From: an uncultured delta proteobacterium
Lineage (GTDB): Bacteria > Myxococcota_A > Polyangia > Palsa-1104
Assembly (NCBI GenBank): GCA_963785725.1
Contig: CAWAWS010000005.1
Coordinates: forward strand, 64,001 to 128,000
DNA: 64,000 bases
Direction: 5' to 3'
In this document: piece by piece, positions 6,061-34,551 of the stretch
Position numbering within the stretch: position 1 is the first letter of the stretch
Layout: every line of letters begins with the position of its first letter
Made by a program: the position numbers and the translations under genes
The notes under the pieces: model-generated
The model's database searches: none
Seen by the model: the letters and a program-made list of their open reading frames with translations, nothing else
What the model was told of the DNA's origin: nothing

Positions 6061-10367
<4,307 letters not shown>

Positions 10368-10375
<8 letters not shown>

Positions 10376-10706
10376 CGAGCGCCACAAAAGGGACGCCGCC
10401 CCGGCGCCGACCTTCGCCGCCCGGGTCGGCGCGAAAGCGACACGCAAGCTGAGCGCGCGCCGCAATCCCGCGCAAGGCGTGTGGTTTGGCCTCGGCATGA
10501 TGGGGCTCGTCGGCTGGTCGGTGACGATTCCCACGCTGCTCGGCGCGGCGCTGGGGAGCTGGCTCGACCGGCGGCACTCCGGCCCGCATCCGTGGACGCT
10601 GGCGCTGCTGATGGCCGGGCTCGTGATCGGCTGCTTCAACGCGTGGCATTGGGTCGCCAAAGAGGACAAGGCGATGCAAGACGAACGGCAGGAAGACCAT
10701 GAATGA
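10368..10706 (+). CDS. atpQ: N-ATPase AtpQ (AtpZ/AtpI family)
   Basis: Two TM segments, GLVGWSV..PTLLG...G.WLD; canonical N-ATPase position. Confidence 0.85.
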
Positions 10707-11013
10707 GGCAGTAACCATCGGGCTGGCCGGCGTGGCCGGCGGAATGCTGGGCCTCGTCTTCTTCGGCGGTCTGTGGTGGACCATTCGCAAGGGCGTCGCG
10801 GCCAAACAGCCGGCGCTCTGGTTCTTGGGCAGCCTATTCGTCCGAATGAGCGTCACCGTCGCCGGCTTCTATCTCGTCTCGGCGGGCAGCTGGAAGCGGC
10901 TGCTGTCATGCCTGCTCGGATTCGTCTTGGCCTGCGCGGCGGTGACCCGACTGACCCGCCGGTCGAGCGAGCCGGTGGCCGACCGCGCCGCCGCGAGCCA
11001 CCATGCGCCTTAG
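10699..11013 (+). CDS. atpR: N-ATPase AtpR membrane subunit
   Basis: FFGGLWWT...S.FVRM; three TM segments; canonical position. Confidence 0.82.
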   Translation: MNEAVTIGLAGVAGGMLGLVFFGGLWWTIRKGVAAKQPALWFLGSLFVRMSVTVAGFYLVSAGSWKRLLSCLLGFVLACAAVTRLTRRSSEPVADRAAASHHAP

Positions 11014-11728
11014 CTCCGACACGCTGATCTTCTGGCAGCACGGCTTTGTCAAGCTCAACGGCACCATCGTGTTCACGTGGGGACTGATGCTGCTCCTGAC
11101 CGTCGGCTCGTGGCTCACCACCCGCAAGCTCTCGCTCGACCTGAAGCGCGCCCGCTGGCAAAACGTCCTCGAGATCATCGTCACGACGATCGACCAACAG
11201 ATCGCCGAAGTCGGGCTCCGCAATCCCGAGAAGTATCTCGGCTTCTTGGGCACGCTCTTTCTATTCGTCGCCGTGGCCAACCTGTGCACCGTCATTCCCG
11301 GCTATCAGCCGCCGACGGGCTCCCTGTCGACGACGGCGGCGCTGGCGCTGTGCGTCTTGGTCGCCGTCCCCGTCTTCGGAATCGCCGAGCAGGGATTGGG
11401 CGGCTATCTCGAGTCCTATCTCGAGCCGACCTTCATCATGCTGCCCTTCAATATCATCAGCGAGATCTCGCGGACGCTGGCGCTCGCCATTCGCCTCTTC
11501 GGCAACATGATGAGCGGCGCCATGATCGTCGCCATTCTGCTCACGATCACGCCCTTCATCTTTCCCGTCGTCATGACGGCGCTCGGCCTTTTGACCGGCA
11601 TGGTCCAGGCCTACATCTTCAGCATTCTGGCCGCGGTCTATATCGCGGCCGCCACGCGTAAGCACAAGCGGGCGGTCGGCGCAGGCTCGAGCATTCAACG
11701 AACCAACGAGAGGTCGCAGCATGGATAG
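11003..11728 (+). CDS. atpB: ATP synthase Fo subunit a
   Basis: PPTGSLST, SRTLALAIRLFGNM (essential Arg), VQAYIF. Confidence 0.94.
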   Translation: MRLSSDTLIFWQHGFVKLNGTIVFTWGLMLLLTVGSWLTTRKLSLDLKRARWQNVLEIIVTTIDQQIAEVGLRNPEKYLGFLGTLFLFVAVANLCTVIPGYQPPTGSLSTTAALALCVLVAVPVFGIAEQGLGGYLESYLEPTFIMLPFNIISEISRTLALAIRLFGNMMSGAMIVAILLTITPFIFPVVMTALGLLTGMVQAYIFSILAAVYIAAATRKHKRAVGAGSSIQRTNERSQHG

Positions 11729-12002
11729 CTCGACGGTCATTGCGGTGGCGTCCATTGTCGTCGCCGGCATCACCACCGGATTCGGCACGATGGGCCCGGC
11801 GCTGGCGGAAGGCAGAGCGGTCGCGACCGCGGTCAGCTCGCTGGCGCAGCAGCCCGACGCCTCGGCGACCATCACCCGAACCCTGTTCGTCGGCTTGGCG
11901 ATGATCGAATCGACGGCCATCTACTGCTTCGTGGTCTCGATGATCCTCATTTTCGCCAATCCATTCTGGAATCACGCCATCGCCCATGCAGCGACGAAGT
12001 AA
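11721..12002 (+). CDS. atpE: ATP synthase Fo subunit c with Na+-type motif
   Basis: GPALAEG, QQPDA loop, IESTAIY. Confidence 0.95.
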   Translation: MDSSTVIAVASIVVAGITTGFGTMGPALAEGRAVATAVSSLAQQPDASATITRTLFVGLAMIESTAIYCFVVSMILIFANPFWNHAIAHAATK

Positions 12003-12004
12003 CC

Positions 12005-12839
12005 ATGCTCATCGACTGGTTCACCGTCGGAGCGCAGGCGCTCAACTTCGTCATCCTCGTCTGGCTGATGAAGCATTTTCTATATAAGCCCATCCTCCGC
12101 GCCGTCGACGCGCGCGAGCAACGGATCGCCAAGGAGCTCGCCGACGCCGACGCCGCGCAGCGCGAGGCCCATCAGGCGCGTGACGAGCTCCAGCAGAAGA
12201 ACGAGGCCTTCGACCGCCAGCGCGCCGACTTGCTCGGGCGCGCGACCGACGCGGCCCAAGCTGGAGCGCGATCGGCTCTTCGAAGCGGCGCGGCAAGCGG
12301 CCGAGACCGCCGGCGCCAAGCGACGCGAGACGCTGAAGAACGACGCGCACTCGCTGGAACAGCTGATCCGCCTCAAGACCCAGACGGAAGTATTCGCCAT
12401 CGCCCGACGGGCGCTGACGGACCTCGCCGCCGTCAGCCTGGAAGAGCGACTGGTGGCCGTGTTCAATCGCCGGCTCGGGGAGATGGACGACCGGGCAAAG
12501 ACCATCCTCATCGAAGCGCTCACGAAGACCACCGAGCCGGCGCTGGTGCGCTCCGCGTTCGACTTACCGCCCGAGCAGCGCGCCGCCATTCACGAGACCC
12601 TCAAGAGTCGCTTGGCGGTCGAGGTCCAGCTCCGCTTCGAGACTGCGCCCAGCCTGATCGGAGGGATCGAGCTGAGCAAGAATGGCCAGAAGATCGCCTG
12701 GAGCATCCAGGACTATCTGGCGTCGCTGGAGAGCGAGATGGGCGACCTCTTGAACCCACCGGCGCAGCCGGCGCCGAGGCCCGAGAACGCGACAGAGCAG
12801 TCGAGCGCCGCGAGCAGGTCCAATGGACACTTCGTCTAG
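12005..12839 (+). CDS. atpF: N-ATPase extended b subunit, frameshifted near 12262
   Basis: [13 protein letters not shown]...FLYKPIL in one frame continues as [10 protein letters not shown]...LIGGIEL...KIAWSI in another; removing one G joins them. Confidence 0.88.
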
Positions 12840-14466
12840 CGAGCTGCACAGCGTCTTCGACCGCGCGTTCGCCGAGATCGCCGCAGCGCGAGAGGCGTTC
12901 ACGCCGCGACTGGCGCCGCGGGAAGTCGGCACGATCAAGACGGTCTCCACGGGTATCGCGAAGGTCGCCGGTCTGCCCGGCGTGGGCTTCGAAGAGCTGC
13001 TCGAGTTTCCCGGCGACGTGTTCGGCATCGCGTTCAATCTGGACGTGGATGAGGTCGGCGTCATCTTGCTCGGCGAATACTCGCAGCTGCACGCCGGCGA
13101 CGAGGTCAAACGCACCGGCCGGGTCATGGACGTGGCCGTGGGCGAGCAACTGCTCGGGCGGGTCATCGACCCGCTCGGCCGGCCGCTCGACGGCAAGCCG
13201 CCGATCGTCGCCGCCGCGCGCTTGCCCATCGAGCGCCCGGCCGCGCCCATCATGGATCGCGCGCCCGTCAATATTCCGCTGCAAACCGGCCTCAAGGTCG
13301 TCGACGCGCTCGTCCCCATCGGCCGCGGCCAGCGTGAATTGATCCTCGGAGATCGCCAGACCGGCAAGACGGCGATCGCCATCGACACGATCGTGAACCA
13401 ACGCGGCAAGGATGTCCTGTGCGTCTATTGTGCGATCGGTCAGCGCGCCTCCGCCGTCGCCAAGGTGATCGCGAATCTGCGGGACGCGGGAGCGATGGAT
13501 TACACCGTCGTCGTCGTGGCCGAGGGCAATGAAGCGCCCGGCCTCGCCTACATCACGCCCTACGCCGCGACCAGCATCGCCGAGCACTTCATGGAGATGG
13601 GCCGCGACGTCCTCATCGTCTACGACGATCTCACGCAGCACGCCCGCGCCTATCGGGAGCTGTCGCTGCTGCTGCGCCGCCCGCCCGGTCGCGAGGCCTT
13701 TCCCGGCGACATCTTCTACATTCACTCGCGCCTGCTCGAGCGATCGACCCATCTGCGGTCGGAGCGCGGCGGCGGCTCGCTCACCGCCCTGCCCATCATC
13801 GAGACCGAAGCGCAGGATATCTCCGCCTATATCCCGACCAACCTGATCTCGATTACGGACGGGCAGATCTATCTGTCGCCGTCGCTGTTCGAGCTGGGCG
13901 TGCTGCCGGCAGTCGATGTCGGCAAATCGGTCTCGCGCGTCGGCGGCAAGGCGCAGCGCGCCGCCTACCGCGCGGTCACCGGCGACCTCAAGCTCGCCTA
14001 CGCGCAGTTCGAAGAGCTGGAGGCCTTCGCGCGGTTCGGTGCCCGCCTCGACGAGAACACGCGCAAGATCATCGAGCACGGACGGCGCATCCGCGCCTGC
14101 CTCAAGCAGGCCGAGCTCGTCTCGATCTCGATGCCGGTCCAGATTGCGATCCTGTTGGCGTTGACGGAGAAGCTCTTCGACGCAGTGCCGCTCGATCGGA
14201 TGGTCGACGCCGAGGAGGCCGTGCGGGCGGCAGCGTTGACCACTTCCGCGGCCATCTGCGGGCGATTCGAGAGCGCCGCCCAATTGAATGACGCTGATCG
14301 TCAGGCGATCGTGGAGCTCGCGCGCCTGGCGCTCGTGCCCTTTCATACCCGTGCGGAAGGTCAGTCTGAAAAGGAGGCAGCGTCCACGCGCGCAGCGGTC
14401 TCCACCGCCACCGCGCAAGCCGACGTCGCGCCGAAGCCCGCGTCTCCGTCGACTGGAAAGTCATGA
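12823..14466 (+). CDS. atpA: ATP synthase alpha subunit
   Basis: [35 protein letters not shown]. Confidence 0.96.
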
Positions 14467-15359
14467 GTGACACGACGGCGAGCCTGCGTCGGAAGATCAA
14501 CAGCGCCGGCGAGCTCCAGTCGGTCGTCAGGACGATGAAGGCGCTGGCCGCTTCCAGCATCGGACAATATGAACAGTCGGTGCGCGCCGTGGCCGACTAC
14601 CATCGAGCCGTGGAGCTGGGCTTGGGCGCCTGCTTCCGCGCCACGGCGCCGGCGCGCTCGACAGCCGAGCCGCGGCCGCGAGCCGAGGCAGGCCCGATCG
14701 GCGCCGTCGTCTTCGGCTCCGATCAGGGCCTGGTCGGGCAGTTCAATGAGGTCGTGACAGATTATGCCGTCGGAAAGCTCGCGGAGCTGCCTGGCGGCCC
14801 GCTGGTCTGGGCCGTCGGCGAACGGGTCCACGCGCGCCTGACCGATGCGGGCATCCCAGTGATGGCGCTCTTTAGCCTGCCCAGCTCAGCCGAAGCGATC
14901 ACGCCACTCGTGGGACGAATTCAAGTCGAGACCGAATCGCGTCTCGCCGAAGGGAAGCAAACCTGTCTCTATGTCTTTCATAATCGGCCGCAGTCCGGCG
15001 CGCTGTACGAGCCGGTCAGTCAGCGTCTGCTGCCGATCGACGCCCAATGGCAGCGCGACGCAGCGCGAGCGCCTTGGCCGACCGGCAACTTGCCCGAGGT
15101 CGTCGGCGGCGGCGCGACTACGCTGCAAATGCTCATCCGTGAATACTTGTTCATCTCGCTCTTTCGGGCCTGCGCGGAGTCTCTGGCGAGCGAGAACGCC
15201 AGCCGCCTGGCGGCGATGCAGCGCGCCGACAAAAACATAGACGAGCTGATCGAGAGCCTCAGCGGCGCATTTCATGGCCTGCGGCAGAGCAGCATCGACG
15301 AAGAGCTGTTCGATGTCATCTCGGGTTTCGAAGCGCTGGGCAAGAACGAGCTCGCCTGA
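14463..15359 (+). CDS. atpG: ATP synthase gamma subunit
   Basis: [41 protein letters not shown]. Confidence 0.94.
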
Positions 15360-24678: not shown

Positions 24679-26390
<1,712 letters not shown>

Positions 26391-27963: not shown

Positions 27964-29337
27964 TCACGAGGATGCAGCCGATCGCGCGCTCCAATGCCGG
28001 TTTTCGACCACCCGCAAATGGATCGGAGCGCGCGGCGCCATGGTGATGTTCTTGAGCGCGCGCGCGGGCGTCCCTGCCGGCCGCGTCGCCAACTGCAGAG
28101 ACGTCACAATCGTTCCGACGACGATTCGCATTTGATACGCGCCGAACGCCGCGCCGATGCAGCGGCGAACGCCACCGCCGAATGGCGCATATTCGAACGG
28201 CCCGTATTGCCGCGCCAGGAACCGCGCGGGGTCGAAGCGCGCCGGGTCCGGCCATACGTCCCGGTCGGTGTGCAAGAGCGTCGTGGCCACGGCGACGTTC
28301 TGTCCGGGCGCGACCTTGACGCCGCGCAAGGAGAACGGCTGCAAGCAACGCCGCGGAATGACCGGCACGATCGGGTGTAATCGCAGCGCCTCGTTGCAGA
28401 CGGCACCGAGATACGGCTGCTGCGCGAGCTGCTCGGGTGCGGGGCTGGGACCGAGCGCGCCGAGCTCCGCCTTGAGCGTCGCGAGCACGGCTGGCGAACG
28501 ATGCAGATGGAACAGCGTCCACGCCAGCGCAGTCGTCGTCGTATCGTGCCCACCCACGATGAGCGTGCGCAATTCGTCGATGAGCTCGTCCTCGCTGAGC
28601 GCCGAGCCGTCTTCATAACGAGCGTCCATGAGCAGGCTGAGGATGTCCTCACGTCCCGCCGTGCCGGTGCGGCGGCGCGCGGCGATCTCCTGCCGGAACA
28701 GCGCGCACACGGCGTCGCGCGCGGCGACGAGACGGTCCCACGGGCCGAGACCGCAGAGACCGCGGCGTAAGAAAGGCAGGATCAACAGCGCCGGCGTATA
28801 GGCGGACAGCATCGTCGAGATCGCCGTCGTGAACCGCGCGCTCTTGTCCTGGCCTTCGACGCCGAGCACGGCCCGCATGATGACGTGCAGCGTAATCCGC
28901 CGCATGGCGTCCTGGAGGCTGACGCGGTCGGACGGACGCCACGTGGCCAGCTCCGCCAGCGCCGTGTCGCGAATGATCGTGCCGTAGGCGCGCATTCTCT
29001 CGCCGTGAAACGACGGCGTCATCAAGCGGCGCTCGCGACGGTGCTTCTCGCCCGCGAGGAGCAACAGCGAATGTTGCCCCAAGAGCGGCTCCACGGGATT
29101 GGGCGAGACCGGCTCGAAGACGTCCATCGGCGCCGAGAAGATGGCGCGCGCGCCCTCCGGATGGCCGGTCACCAAAATCGCGCCCAGCGACGGCAGCTCG
29201 ACGACGAAGGGATTGCCGCGGCGCGTCCGACACCCTTCGAGATAACGCTCGAGATCGACGGCCATCGCCAGCGCGGCGACGAACCGCGGGCTGCGCTGGC
29301 GCGGAAGGCCCCACTCGCCGCGACGCGCGACGTTCAC
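27964..29337 (-). CDS. Cytochrome P450
   Basis: GGHDTT, EALR, FDPARF, FGGGVRRCIG heme motif; GTG start overlaps the upstream stop. Confidence 0.95.
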   Translation of the reverse strand: MNVARRGEWGLPRQRSPRFVAALAMAVDLERYLEGCRTRRGNPFVVELPSLGAILVTGHPEGARAIFSAPMDVFEPVSPNPVEPLLGQHSLLLLAGEKHRRERRLMTPSFHGERMRAYGTIIRDTALAELATWRPSDRVSLQDAMRRITLHVIMRAVLGVEGQDKSARFTTAISTMLSAYTPALLILPFLRRGLCGLGPWDRLVAARDAVCALFRQEIAARRRTGTAGREDILSLLMDARYEDGSALSEDELIDELRTLIVGGHDTTTTALAWTLFHLHRSPAVLATLKAELGALGPSPAPEQLAQQPYLGAVCNEALRLHPIVPVIPRRCLQPFSLRGVKVAPGQNVAVATTLLHTDRDVWPDPARFDPARFLARQYGPFEYAPFGGGVRRCIGAAFGAYQMRIVVGTIVTSLQLATRPAGTPARALKNITMAPRAPIHLRVVENRHWSARSAASS

Positions 29338-30251
29338 GCGCGCTCGCCGTCGAAGCCCACGGTGAGCGTCGTCAGCAGCGGCCAAATGCGGCCGATGCGA
29401 ACGGCCGCGCCCGGCGCCGCCATCGCGGCGATCGCCTGCAGCTCGGCTTCGGGATAGAACTTGCGCGCGCTGATCACCGCGTCGTGCACCATCGCCGGCC
29501 AGATCGTCAAGAGCGCCGTCCCCGATACGAAGGCGGTGGTCGCCAAGCTCCGGTAGCCGTCGACGGAGACGAAGGCCGTGGTGGCGACCCGGCGCGACTC
29601 GGCGATCATCCGCGCCAGCTGTCCCGGCGAAAAGTGGTGAACGCTCTGCGCCACGAAGATGATGTCGTAGGCGCCGTCGGCGATGTCGCTCATGTCGAAC
29701 GCGTTCAAGTGGCGAAAGGTGACCGGCAGCGCTTGCGCGGCCGCCTTCGCCCGACTGCGCTCGACGTACAGCGGGACGATGTCGGAGCCGGTGACCTCGA
29801 CCGCCAGGCGCTTGGACTTCGCCAGTGAAGCCAGCGCGAACGCGAACCCGCCCGCGCCGCTCGCCAGCTCGAGCACGCGCGCCGGCCGCCCGTGACGTGC
29901 GGCGATCGCGCGCAGCTGCGGCTCCAACAGGGCGAAGAAGCGCCGATAGAACGTGCTCACCGTATTCAACAGGTGCAGACCGAGCGCGATGGCGAGCTTG
30001 CCCCGCTCCGAGTAGCCCGGCTCGTCCAGATGCTCGACCGCGTTGGTGCGCAGCGCCTCGTCGAGCGCGCAGTCGATGCGCGCGAGCGGCCCGGCGGTGA
30101 CGGCGCGCCGCGCCCGCTCCGTTCGCATGCGCGCGATGACGCCGTCGACGTGGCGCTCGAGCGACTCGCCTTGCGGCGCGGGCGGCGCCATCGTGGCGCG
30201 AAACGCGGGGTCATTCAGAACGGAGCGATTGAGCGTTCGCAGCTGCAGCAT
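29334..30251 (-). CDS. Class I SAM-dependent methyltransferase
   Basis: VLELASGAG, GSD, YDIIF...VHHF. Confidence 0.85.
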   Translation of the reverse strand: MLQLRTLNRSVLNDPAFRATMAPPAPQGESLERHVDGVIARMRTERARRAVTAGPLARIDCALDEALRTNAVEHLDEPGYSERGKLAIALGLHLLNTVSTFYRRFFALLEPQLRAIAARHGRPARVLELASGAGGFAFALASLAKSKRLAVEVTGSDIVPLYVERSRAKAAAQALPVTFRHLNAFDMSDIADGAYDIIFVAQSVHHFSPGQLARMIAESRRVATTAFVSVDGYRSLATTAFVSGTALLTIWPAMVHDAVISARKFYPEAELQAIAAMAAPGAAVRIGRIWPLLTTLTVGFDGERA

Positions 30252-30273
30252 CGGTCATCTCCTCGGCTAAGGG

Positions 30274-30798
30274 TCATTCCAGTAGTGCGTCCGGCGCTCG
30301 CTTGCGGCGTCCGGCGCCCGATCGCGGCGGCGGCGGCGGCGTCGCCGGCACCAGCTGATGCGCGATCAGCTTCTCCAACACCGGCGTGAGCGCCCGCTTG
30401 AGCCGCCCCACTTCTGCGAGCTCGACGCTGGTGCTACACAACAGCTGCGTCGGGATGCCGACGGCGCGCCGCTTGAGCGCGCGCCCACGGCGGGTGAGCC
30501 AGTTCTCGACCACCCGATCGTCGGCATCGTTGCGGATCCGATCGATCAGCCCGTCGCTGGCCAGCCGCTTGAGCACCGGCGTGAGCGTGCCGGAATCGAG
30601 CACCAGTCGCTCGCCAATCTGGCTCACGGTCGAGCCGTCCTTTTCCCACAGCACCATCAGCGTCAAATATTGCGAATAGGTGATGCCGAGCCGGTCCAGG
30701 TGCGGCCGATACGCTTGGACGATCAACCGCGACGCGGCGTACAGCGGAAAACAGATCTGATTGTCGAGCTTGAGCACGTCGAATTCGTCTGCGGGCAT
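30274..30798 (-). CDS. ohrR: OhrR-like MarR-family regulator
   Basis: LKLDNQICFPLYAASR...YRP.LD.LGITY.QYL..MVLWE.DG...LDSGTLTP.LKRL, with the redox Cys in QICF; start could also be 30819. Confidence 0.88.
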   Translation of the reverse strand: MPADEFDVLKLDNQICFPLYAASRLIVQAYRPHLDRLGITYSQYLTLMVLWEKDGSTVSQIGERLVLDSGTLTPVLKRLASDGLIDRIRNDADDRVVENWLTRRGRALKRRAVGIPTQLLCSTSVELAEVGRLKRALTPVLEKLIAHQLVPATPPPPPRSGAGRRKRAPDALLE

Positions 30799-30818
30799 TG
30801 CCAATCTCACCAGCCGCA

Positions 30819-32585
30819 TCAGGCGGCGGACGAGACTGTAACCGCATTCCACGCGGCCACGCAGGTCTCGGCGTCCTCGGGCAAGAACGGCGCGAACGGC
30901 GGCATCTCCTCGCGCTGCAAGCGCACCTCGAGCACGCCCGGGCGCGCGCCGCCGTCGGCGTGATAGGCGGCGAGCTGGGCCAACAGCTGCGCCGGCGACG
31001 ACGCGCTGCCGACCCAGAGACGGCCGGGCCCGAGGCCACGCGCCATGCCGGCGATGTCGACCGTGGCGTAGCGCGAGCACTCGAGGCGCGCATCGAAGTA
31101 GAGCCGCTGTCGGGTCGCGCACATGCCGTGTTGATTGTCGTTGAACACCACGAACAGGACGCGCAGCCCGAGGTCGACGGCGGTGTGCACCTCGGTCCCG
31201 AGCATCAGAAAGGCGCCGTCGCCGCACACGACGAGCGTGCGTGCGTCGCGCTCGCTGCCGAGCTGGGCGCCGGTCGCGGCGGCGATGGCGTAACCCATGC
31301 CGCCCTGGCCGAGCGCGATGGTGGTGCTGGTGCCGGCGCGGATCGAGAGCAGATGGAGCGCGGTGGCGGCGCAATTACCGGCGTCGAAGAGGACGTGGCC
31401 GCGCTCGGGCAGATAGCGCTGCAGGATCTCGATGGCGACGCTGGAGCGCAGCGCGTCGCCGCGCGCGGCTTCCGGGCGCAAAGGAGCCGCGATCGGCTGG
31501 ATGCGATAGCGGCGCAGCTCGTAGCCCGCGACGGGCGCGTGGCGGAACGGCTGCTCGGCCAGCCGGTCGTTCAGCCGTTCGAACACGAGGCCGGCGTCGG
31601 CTTCGACCACTAGCGCCGGCTCGCACGCACGTCGCGCTTGGGGCGGCATCGATGTTGACCAGGGCCACCCGGGCGCGCGCGAGGCCGCGGGCGATCGGGC
31701 CGCGCGTCATGACGTCGAGCCCGCTGCCGACGGCGATGATGAGATCGGCCTCGTGGTTCAGATAGTCGTGCGCCGACGGGTGGCCGGCCGCGCCCACGAC
31801 GCCGAGGAAGAGCGGATGATCGTGCGGGAACGCGCCGACGTTGCCCATCGTCGTGACGACCGGGAGCTGCGCGGCGACGGCGAAGCGGCGCACTTCGTCC
31901 GGCGCCGACGAACGCTCGACGCCGGTCCCGAGGATCAGCACGGGACGGCGCGCGTCACGCACCGCCGCAAACAGCCGATCGAGCCCGGCTGCGTCGTCGA
32001 GCGCCGCTGGCACCCGCACTGAATCGAGGAGCGCCGAGACGCTCGACGGACAGGGGCCGACCGGTTGTGCCCACACATCGCGCGGGACCAGGAGCACGAC
32101 GGGACCAGGCCGGCCACTCAGCGCCGCCGTCACCGCCTGCTCGAGGCACGGCCAAAACTGCTCGGGCCGATCGATGCGCGCCACGTGTTTGGTCAACGCG
32201 CGAAACAGGCCCACGGCGTCGACGGTGCGGCCGATGCCGGAGCCGTCTTGGAAGCCGCCCCGCCCTTCCAGGGTCGTCGGCATCTGCCCGACGATGGCCA
32301 GTACGGGGACGCGCTCGGCGTGTGATTCGGCCAGCCCCACGGCGAGGTTCATCATCCCTCCCCCCGAAGTGGCGCAGCAGATCCCCAGAGTACGATTCGT
32401 TCGTGCGCGCGCGTCGGCCATGAACGCCGCTCCCACTTCGGAGCGGGCGAGGACCGAGTGCACCCGCCCCTCCGACCGGACGATGGCGTCGTGGAGATGC
32501 TCGATGTTGGCGCCGCTGACACCAAAGACGTAGCGAGTGTCCCAAACGCCGAGGGTCGCCACACGAGCGCATCGACCAGCTTCAT
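30819..32585 (-). CDS. Thiamine diphosphate-dependent enzyme (acyloin synthase/ALS-like, NzsH-like), frameshifted near 32562 and 31640
   Basis: YVFGVSGANIEH, ARSEVGAAFMAD, TSGGGMMN, GGMGY, GDGAF...FNDN ThDP motif, spread over three frames. Confidence 0.85.
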
Positions 32586-33610
32586 GCGCGCCCGCCGTGG
32601 CTCCGAATCGCCGCGGCCGGCATAGTCGCCGGCGTGCGAAAAGCCGCCGAGCGCCACGCGCGACGCCGCTGCACGATGCGCCCCGCTTTCCACGGCGCGT
32701 TCGATGGCAGACGGGAATGGCCGCGCCGAAGAGGTTCCCGTACTCCTCGAACGTCTCGATCGTGCTTCTCTTCCGGGAGCTCCAACGCTTCACGCCAATT
32801 TCGCAGGAAGAACGGCGTTCGGCTGGTTGGTGATGAGCGCGTCGATCTGCTCGGGTCGAGATCTCCGCCGCCGTGCACGCCTCCCGAATCGATCCTCGGG
32901 GACGAGCGCGTTGCCGCGCATCGATCACGCTGCGCCATGCTGCGATCTCGGTGAAGTCGATGTAGCAGCGGCGTCTGCCGCGGCTCCCAGCACGCTCGCT
33001 CGTCGTCGCAGGTCTACGCGCATGTCGTCGGCGAACTCGGCGTAAGAGCGCTGTCACGACGCTGACAAGATGGGCGACGAGTCGTTGGCCACGAGTAGCC
33101 CCACGCCGCAGCCGTCTCCCGGAACGGAGGACTGCGGGCGAACACGATTCTCGGCGTGCCGGAACACTCGCCCGGCCGCGTTCTGCACGTAGCACGATGA
33201 GCGCCGATCTGCGCGCCCGTGCTCTGCATGAGCGCCGCGCCACCGACATCATGAACACGAAAGACACGCAGCCGCTATTGTGCAAGTCGAAGATCTGACG
33301 TCGGCTGGCAGCCGAGAATCTTGCGTCAGCGACGCCCCGCGCCGGTAAACGGGGAGTCGGGGAGGCTCACGTTGGTGAGAATGAGGTCGACGTCTTTGCG
33401 CGGATCGAGGTTGAGCCGATCGAACAGCTTGCGCGTCGCCCGCTCGATCATGTCGACCGCGGTCTCGCCGTCGGCCACGTGATGACGCAGCCGCGCGCCC
33501 TTGAACATCGCCGGGCGCGGCGCGTCGGGATCGCCGAAGAAGTCGTTGTCGACGACCTTCTCCGGCAGGTAGCTGGCGACGCCGGCGAGGCTGACCGTCG
33601 TGGTCGCCAT
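32582..33610 (-). pseudogene. 3-oxoacyl-ACP synthase III (FabH-like, NzsJ-like) with multiple frameshifts (possibly sequencing errors)
   Basis: ASYLPE, DLHNSGCVSF (active Cys), HQP, YGNLFGA and GGFSHAGDY lie in different frames. Confidence 0.75.
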
Positions 33611-34251
33611 CAGCCGGCCACGCGGCGCGGGTTGAGCGGGAGCCCGTTCTTGTAGCGGTGCTCGAGGATGTGCTTCAGGTTCTGCATCTCGACCCAGTGG
33701 CCGGCGTAGAAGAAGGGCCACAGATCGCCGACCCAGATCTTGCGATCGGCCGGCGCCTTTTCGGGGAACGGATTGCCGTCGTAGAAGGGATGGCGGCAGT
33801 TGGTCCACAGCACGACGGAGCCCGGCTTGTTCAGCACGAGCGGCGCCGGAATCACGCGCATGAGGTAGATCATCCAGAGCTTCTCCGGCTGATCCCACGC
33901 GCAGTGGAAATCGACGGTGAGCGCGTCGGCGTTGGCGACGCACTTCGTGTAGATGTGCGTGGCCCCGCCGATCTTGTCGGTCGAGCGGACGCGGCCTTCG
34001 GCGTCCATGTCCTCGAAGTCGCGCATGCTGAAGGTCCACTCGGCGAGCGTGTAGACGTCGGCGAGGTAGGCGAAGACCTCCTCGGGCGGGCATTCGATGT
34101 GCTCCTCGAGCGTGCAGTAGCGACCGTAGACCTCCTCGTGCGGGTAGACCGCGTGCGTGAGCTCCATGGCAAAGCTGGTCATCTCGTCTTTGCTGAAGTT
34201 CTCGATGCGGCGGACGTTCGCGAGCCCGTTCAGTGTCTCGTCCATTTTCAT
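33610..34251 (-). CDS. SRPBCC/aromatase-cyclase family protein (NzsI/CqsB2 carbazole synthase-like)
   Basis: IECPPEEVFAYL...EWT, TVDFHCAWDQ..LWMIYLMRV, GSVVLWTNC.HPFY, GHWVEMQNLK; first gene of the KAS III/ThDP operon. Confidence 0.7.
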   Translation of the reverse strand: MKMDETLNGLANVRRIENFSKDEMTSFAMELTHAVYPHEEVYGRYCTLEEHIECPPEEVFAYLADVYTLAEWTFSMRDFEDMDAEGRVRSTDKIGGATHIYTKCVANADALTVDFHCAWDQPEKLWMIYLMRVIPAPLVLNKPGSVVLWTNCRHPFYDGNPFPEKAPADRKIWVGDLWPFFYAGHWVEMQNLKHILEHRYKNGLPLNPRRVAG

Positions 34252-34299
34252 CTCACTCCCACTTTGGCGCAGCGCGGCAATGCCATAGCAAGAGCGCTC

Positions 34300-34328
34300 G
34301 ATTGAATGCAATTAAATTGTTCTCAATC
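34300..34328. promoter_or_regulatory. OhrR-type operator
   Basis: GATTGA-ATG-CAATTAAATTG-TTC-TCAATC palindrome; its core matches the B. subtilis OhrR box TACAATTAAATTGTA. Confidence 0.75.
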
Positions 34329-34551
34329 TATTGGCGAATCACGAAATCTTCACAAAGCAGACCCGAGAGAAAATGATTTCACGGGTGCACATTCCAGTGA
34401 GCAGTGGCGACGCCGGCGCGCGCTCGTGCAACGCGAAGGCCAAGCAGATTGCAGCAAGAAACGCGCGGGAATGTCCGCGCTTGGCGTCGAGCCGCGGCTC
34501 ATCGTCACGGCTCTGCCGACGATTCACTGCGTGACACAGGCTGCGATGAGC

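Follow-up and report, generated by a model that had tools for sequence, protein, structure and literature searches.

This locus raises the question of what is made by an operon in which the enzyme trio of bacterial carbazole synthesis is encoded together with a peroxide-sensing regulator, and whether that regulator controls it. The operon (27964–34251) lies in the window, by which we mean the whole analysed stretch of 64,000 nucleotides (positions 64,001 to 128,000 of the forward strand of contig CAWAWS010000005.1, assembly GCA_963785725.1) from an uncultured delta proteobacterium with a genome of 8.9 Mb and 67% GC. Six genes, all on the minus strand, encode in order a cyclase of the SRPBCC family, an enzyme resembling β-ketoacyl-acyl carrier protein synthase III (KAS III), a thiamine diphosphate (ThDP)-dependent carboligase, an OhrR-type regulator, an S-adenosylmethionine (SAM)-dependent methyltransferase and a cytochrome P450. 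We propose that they may form an OhrR-repressed pathway, induced by organic peroxides, to a tailored, fat-soluble 1-alkyl-2-methylcarbazole that traps radicals as an antioxidant. Judged from sequence, this complete reading seems to us to have an even chance of being right. The junctions bore out the single operon of overlapping or closely spaced genes described in the original prediction: the cyclase stop codon overlaps the KAS start codon (TGATG), the KAS and ThDP genes overlap in ATGA, gaps of 20 bp and 22 bp lie before and after the OhrR gene, and the methyltransferase and P450 genes overlap in GTGA. A sigma-70 promoter scan called no minus-strand promoter and was uninformative.

The regulator (30274–30798, minus strand) has the peroxide-sensing cysteine in a QICF motif (Cys16) and a second conserved cysteine, Cys121, which is shared with three homologues. 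It passed the Pfam cut-off for MarR, and its best NCBIfam match was OhrR with 165.5 bits, below the cut-off of 200, as was the score of the ohr-linked OhrR of the same genome (173 bits). At its end (30274–30350) the frame has a proline-rich tail that exceeds that of the homologues by about 20 residues and may be a further frameshift. At the predicted target promoter, 56 bp upstream of the cyclase start, an AT-rich inverted repeat was found (34307–34320), the form described for the OhrR box (PMC6034001), with two mismatches from the Bacillus/Agrobacterium consensus. It was the sole match in the window at three mismatches or fewer (0.11 expected), a scan that is weak by itself because 11 of 100 shuffled sequences matched at the same tolerance. 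Across the genome the 14-mer occurred twice (0.0009 expected under an order-5 Markov model), and the second copy lay directly upstream of ohrR-ohr-bcp on contig C26, followed by genes for OhrR, Ohr (TIGR03561, above cut-off) and a BCP-like peroxiredoxin. The same site was the best non-self blastn match of the DNA upstream of the cluster (74% over 66 columns, E 0.002), and the box lies within a 59-bp stretch (34272–34330) that resembles it. The embedded peroxide sensor of the original prediction can now be described as an OhrR-type, two-cysteine MarR protein whose operon is preceded by the box of ohrR-ohr-bcp. It is very likely that the operon belongs to the OhrR regulon.

OhrR-like genes with a QxCF cysteine adjoined the trio in five of 80 loci; a MarR gene in a further locus (L029) was excluded from the count for want of the motif. 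These trio-linked regulators did not form one clade (three changes, monophyletic in 0% of the bootstrap trees) and represent at least two lineages, and their orientation differed, the gene following the ThDP gene in L001 and being divergent in L002. Promoters of ohr- or bcp-linked ohrR genes in the same genus carried a related, not identical motif. In four of five genomes of the same genus or family, an OhrR of the window group (support 81/90) stood beside an O-methyltransferase together with either a type III polyketide synthase (PKS)/AMP-ligase or a UbiA prenyltransferase (L235:6334-9011, L236:547-5378, L237:2254-7117 and L238:4000-6445, in genomes G004, G003, G010 and G002, respectively). 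Repeats resembling the OhrR box were found between the genes of all four modules. It is possible that these are peroxide-controlled aromatic-lipid pathways, and we infer that their products may be antioxidant lipids.

The first gene (33610–34251, minus strand; start at 34251 or 34245) encodes the cyclase, for which residues are numbered from the ATG at 34245. CqsB2 was its only significant sequence match in the PDB (E 2.6e-49 over residues 14–201), and the Pfam match was weak (Polyketide_cyc2, E 0.004). The AlphaFold model (pLDDT 93.7) has the Bet v1/SRPBCC fold and is closest to CqsB2 (6ipv: Z 21.3, rmsd 2.5, 168 aligned; next match Z 13.3, all Z-scores from re-alignment of the top 1000 Foldseek chains), with 46% identity in the structural alignment. 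The comparison with NzsI and CqsB2 suggested in the original prediction thus established homology, and the high identity looked for was not seen. Five catalytic residues are known in CqsB2: Glu105, Tyr144, Tyr172, His206 and Glu209 (PMC7466098). The last four correspond to Tyr127, Tyr155, His183 and Glu186 of the window cyclase, and Asp90 replaces Glu105. The four kept residues were invariant in 101 of 101 locus proteins and in 240 of 240 database homologues.

When Streptomycetaceae and Polyangiaceae were searched, the matches fell into two tiers. Clade A contains the characterised enzymes, and its cyclases match CqsB2 at E 1e-78 to 1e-123; the window cyclase belongs to a sister clade, B, with 50–84% identity to clade-B and 40–44% to clade-A cyclases. 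The closest cyclase loci were Myxococcota metagenome-assembled genomes (85% and 75% identity). In the cyclase tree clade A formed a separate branch (SH-aLRT 99), and monophyly of groups A and B1 was rejected by the approximately unbiased (AU) test (p-AU 0.006). The AU tests used a 19-locus subset and the LG+G4 model without mixture, for groups named after the first trees, so that their p values are somewhat generous. On this phylogeny the cyclase is a homologue of CqsB2 but not an orthologue of the characterised enzymes.

The ThDP enzyme (30819–32585, minus strand, interrupted by two frameshifts) has a different history. TPP_N, TPP_M and TPP_C passed the Pfam cut-offs, and the catalytic glutamate motif (32445–32422) and the GDG..N motif (31223–31134) could be located. 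For NzsH/CqsB3, and for NzsJ/CqsB1 below, clade-A loci L220–L222 served as proxies in place of the deposited sequences; L222 has the gene content of nzs, with a prenyltransferase, FabH, an aminotransferase, a NUDIX isomerase and a P450, and L220 is cbz-like. The window pieces were 51–61% identical to the ThDP enzymes of the nzs-, cqs- and cbz-like clusters and 36–42% identical to the mycobacterial/streptomycete B2 type. The enzyme falls in the NzsH-type subfamily, A and B1 forming one clade (SH-aLRT 99), and monophyly of B1 and B2 was rejected (p-AU 0.011). No solved NzsH structure was present among its PDB matches.

The KAS gene (32582–33610, minus strand) is frameshifted in the assembly, and its fragments gave no match in the Pfam scan; the enzyme was assigned from motifs and intact homologues as a KAS III-like acyl-transfer or condensing enzyme. 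The cysteine is encoded at 33270–33268, YGNLFG with its asparagine at 32742–32725 and GGFSHAGD at 32648–32625. The Cys-His-Asn triad of the clade-A proxies is incomplete, with TNQP at 32831–32820 placing an asparagine where the catalytic histidine is expected. A histidine occupies this position in nine of nine clade-A locus proteins and in 117 of 120 clade-A search matches. A first sample had suggested a swap between two positions (His244/Asn315 in clade A, Asn/His in clade B); this was dropped, as nzs- and cqs-like L221 and L222 carry histidine at both, and for the same reason only the loss of the first histidine is diagnostic. At the second position the 120 search matches had 6 histidines and 107 asparagines. 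Monophyly of A and B1 was rejected for the KAS as well (p-AU 1e-5).

The KAS and cyclase trees thus conflict significantly with the ThDP tree. Since an NzsH-type ThDP enzyme is combined with a KAS and a cyclase of the sister clade, the cluster is, as far as these trees go, a mosaic and not an orthologue of cqs or nzs. Its equation with the NzsH/J/I and CqsB3/B1/B2 trio held for homology and failed for orthology of the cyclase and the KAS, the latter having an altered triad. Sorangium-type orthology of the two proteins was likewise rejected, the Sorangium KAS proteins found being of clade A. For these reasons the product cannot be read off from neocarazostatin, carquinostatin or sorazolon.

The two remaining enzymes, the methyltransferase (29334–30251, minus strand; Methyltransf_25 above the Pfam cut-off, PRK06202-like) and the P450 (27964–29337, minus strand; p450 above the Pfam cut-off, EALR and heme-cysteine motifs), had been predicted to tailor the product, and their company elsewhere favours partnership in the pathway. 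An independent metagenome contig, L188, carries an intact cyclase-KAS-ThDP operon adjoined divergently by a methyltransferase (68%) and a P450 (65%), and two short contigs carry the same methyltransferase-P450 pair. Both families are also present in Mycolicibacterium L051. Background P450s of cyclase-less relatives reached 48% identity, so identity alone was discarded as a sign of the pathway and membership was judged by tree. The trio-adjacent P450s of Myxococcota and Mycobacteriales, the window enzyme among them, formed a clade of 11 (FastTree support 0.952) that excluded 24 of 24 background P450s; three P450s from cluster loci (L076, L136 and a distant one in L015) fell outside it. The window P450 hardly resembles the one encoded in an nzs-like cluster, and the methyltransferase differs from the O-methyltransferase type with a dimerisation domain described for CbzMT.

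As noted before from the sequence, no acyl carrier protein (ACP) or aminotransferase gene adjoins the trio, and this includes an aminotransferase of the NzsD/CqsB7/CbzB type. Candidates for both exist elsewhere in the genome, a HisC-like homologue (47% identical) on contig C16 and an ACP. The missing ACP is not disqualifying, since the published table of the cbz cluster also shows none (PMC11610953) and the genome holds candidates for both elsewhere. In the other loci the trio itself is conserved, with the KAS in 78 of 80 and the ThDP enzyme in 73 of 80, and the three genes are clustered in the window too. A HisC-like aminotransferase is clustered in 60 of 102 loci, both clades pooled, and many clade-B loci carry one. 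The sister clade gave 1226 homologue matches; it is common in Mycobacteriales and occurs also in Planctomycetes and Myxococcota. No cyclase was found in 60 of 60 relatives searched, so that the distribution is patchy. Some clade-B loci add MMPL-type transporters, and one, L051, a fatty acyl-AMP ligase with an ACP, which fits a lipophilic product. L051 (8346–20055, in the cultured Mycolicibacterium psychrotolerans) is the fullest clade-B cluster seen, with the trio, ACP, acyl-AMP ligase, MMPL transporter, two methyltransferases, P450 and aminotransferase. In many Mycobacteriales loci (L021–L080) a ThDP-cyclase-KAS-aminotransferase operon follows a putative sigma/anti-sigma pair, labelled by sequence inspection. 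One streptomycete genome (G578, contig C23) harbours a cbz-like clade-A cluster (L220) and a clade-B cluster (L224) 140 kb apart, and in a Polyangiaceae genome a clade-A KAS and cyclase read as a single 665-aa fusion (L137:8241-10235) with a provisional boundary, a stop being flagged inside the cyclase match.

From these parts we propose the following pathway. The ThDP enzyme, by its clade membership, would join indole-3-pyruvate, supplied by a host aminotransferase, to pyruvate, the coupling reported for NzsH (PMC9822442). The KAS cysteine would take an acyl group from a host acyl-ACP or acyl-CoA, and its Cys-Asn-Asn site would condense this group with the β-keto acid derived from the ThDP reaction; the corresponding CqsB1/NzsJ step is a decarboxylative condensation with an acyl thioester. 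The cyclase, by its fold and residues, would close ring A, a reaction for which CqsB2/NzsI need no cofactor, and the P450 and methyltransferase, by their co-occurrence, may tailor the product. As in known OhrR proteins, the reduced regulator would bind the box and be released upon oxidation by organic peroxide, so that the product would appear when membrane lipids are oxidised and trap radicals. Carbazoquinocins, which are 1-alkyl-2-methylcarbazoles, are reported to inhibit lipid peroxidation (PMC11350554). A carbazole skeleton is somewhat probable, and given the other parts of the proposal an antioxidant role is likely.

Several observations weigh against this pathway, and three alternatives were considered with them. 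The KAS gene could truly be destroyed in this strain, in which case nothing, or only an indole acyloin, would be made. The gene is split by many frameshifts from about 33320 to 32560, and the ThDP gene by two (at about 32565 and 31640). Compared with the intact locus L001, about two dozen frame-breaking indels lie between 33320 and 32560, as a pseudogene might show, and the contigs without the extra bases come from related strains and not from the source strain. However, almost every indel is an insertion of one base, they crowd into 800 bp, and none that breaks the frame against L001 lies at 33620–34200. In three studies, soil contigs of related strains do not have these bases: four of four runs lack the one at 33301 and three of four those at 33052 and 33063, and a contig that covers 31969–34129 needs 2135 bases where the window has 2161. 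Mismatches to run X1, about 3% in the pieces covering the P450, the methyltransferase and OhrR-ThDP, also rise to 12% at 31969–32560, and an unrelated M28 peptidase gene of the window (24679–26390) is split by a frameshift near 25,900, probably another assembly error. A pseudogene is thus very improbable, and the KAS frameshifts are most probably artefacts of a poorly polished stretch.

The other two alternatives accept a working operon and concern its product. From an indole or other aromatic acyloin, the sister-clade KAS and cyclase might build something other than a carbazole, for example an acylated acyloin ester or a ring closed in another way; we regard this as unlikely. The catalytic histidine is replaced by asparagine in 86 of 86 clade-B KAS proteins, and intact KAS enzymes of the window type (L001, L188) are only 23–29% identical to those of the nzs-, cqs- and cbz-like loci L220–L222, whereas CbzF is reported to be 56% identical to NzsJ (PMC11610953). 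In clade-B cyclases Glu105 has become Asp and Arg143 Ile or Val, each in 240 of 240, and the loop before the C-terminal helix is shorter than in clade A. Clade B is also paired with a second, distinct ThDP subfamily, and the CqsB1 product, when uncontrolled, rearranges to indole esters (PMC7466098). Also weighing against the proposed pathway, the methyltransferase family was found by tblastn in only one of 80 loci, and no product was reported for the sister clade in the searchable literature, which mostly leaves out subscription journals. Yet neither clade varies at the four catalytic positions kept from the carbazole synthase, Asp stands at position 105 in one clade-A cyclase (L136) too, and the window ThDP enzyme is of the NzsH type. 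A hint comes from Tsukamurella, one strain of which has a clade-B cyclase (P0142) and another of which is reported to make antioxidant lipocarbazoles (PMC11387468); these are two different strains, giving a link at the genus level only, and the lipocarbazole producer itself was outside the comparison. The operon might instead be peroxide-inducible with a signal, an antibiotic or another stress metabolite as its product, the box mainly serving autoregulation of ohrR; the trio may simply have been inserted between the promoter of an ohrR gene and the gene itself. We consider this improbable. It agrees with the 66-column resemblance of the upstream DNA to another ohrR upstream region, with the control that OhrR is reported to exert on avermectin, a non-antioxidant (PMC6034001), and with the 75 of 80 trio loci that have no OhrR gene, some carrying AraC regulators. 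A search for the strict box in the upstream DNA of the other loci with OhrR gave no match (best 5–6 mismatches; L032 cut off), and a relaxed pattern that was defined post hoc matched two of four OhrR-bearing loci and two of 88 others. The exact box core occurred three times in 8.9 Mb (0.54 expected), the third copy (G000:C4:141340) preceding the gene of an 817-aa protein with a SIR2-like domain, not a peroxide gene. Against a chance landing, OhrR has joined the trio more than once and in two orientations, and the relatives' OhrR paralogue sits with other candidate aromatic-lipid modules.

If the operon does lead to a peroxide-induced carbazole antioxidant, a broader picture can tentatively be drawn, although we doubt it more than we believe it. 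The second OhrR paralogue may be a plug-in socket of this family for lipid-soluble antioxidants on demand, filled with a carbazole pathway here and with type III PKS or UbiA/O-methyltransferase modules in the relatives, and the sister-clade products may be membrane protectants like the lipocarbazoles. In test-tube assays bacterial carbazoles scavenge radicals; through the shared OhrR box, a carbazole-type pathway can be connected directly, and in a way that experiments can test, with the defence against organic peroxides. Our literature searches, with subscription journals mostly outside their coverage, found no paper linking carbazole synthesis to a peroxide sensor. OhrR control, if true, would also suggest how to induce, and so find, the product of a sister clade that has more than 1000 homologues, and the mosaic composition means that cross-clade swaps could show what the histidine-less KAS and the altered cyclase do differently.

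Elsewhere in the window, a phosphoketolase gene is followed by an ATP synthase gene set (6061–15356; alpha subunit confirmed by Pfam). In another contig of the genome an extremely AT-rich stretch at the contig end (G000:C7, near 931,400) is possibly a misassembly or contamination.

Among known systems, the carquinostatin (cqsB1-B3) and neocarazostatin (nzsH/I/J) clusters of Streptomyces have the same trio of ThDP, KAS III-like and SRPBCC enzymes, with the same cyclase fold, four catalytic residues and ThDP subfamily (51–61% to the proxies). The window cluster differs from them by its sister-clade cyclase (43–46%) and KAS (23–29% to the proxies, His to Asn), by the lack of prenyltransferase, FabH, ACP, isopentenyl diphosphate isomerase and aminotransferase genes, and by having in their place OhrR, a methyltransferase and a P450 unlike theirs. 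The carbazomycin cluster of Streptomyces luteosporeus (cbz; CbzD/E/F and CbzMT) is described with the same trio and a methyltransferase and, like the window cluster, without an ACP; its enzymes are reported to be 56–68% identical to Nzs/Cqs, that is, of clade A, unlike the window KAS and cyclase, and CbzMT to have a dimerisation domain, whereas the window methyltransferase is of another family. The published cbz table lists an aminotransferase, a short-chain dehydrogenase/reductase and a flavin adenine dinucleotide enzyme, and neither OhrR nor P450 (PMC11610953). The candidates for the Sorangium carbazole sorazolon share Myxococcota-type hosts and trio homologues with the window, but the Sorangium KAS found is of clade A (64–66% to L112). 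On the regulatory side, the ohrR-ohr regulon and the avermectin-linked OhrR of S. avermitilis are described with the same N-terminal-cysteine OhrR and AT-rich inverted-repeat box (PMC6034001); the window differs in that its cluster contains no ohr and a second OhrR gene lies inside the box-carrying biosynthetic operon.

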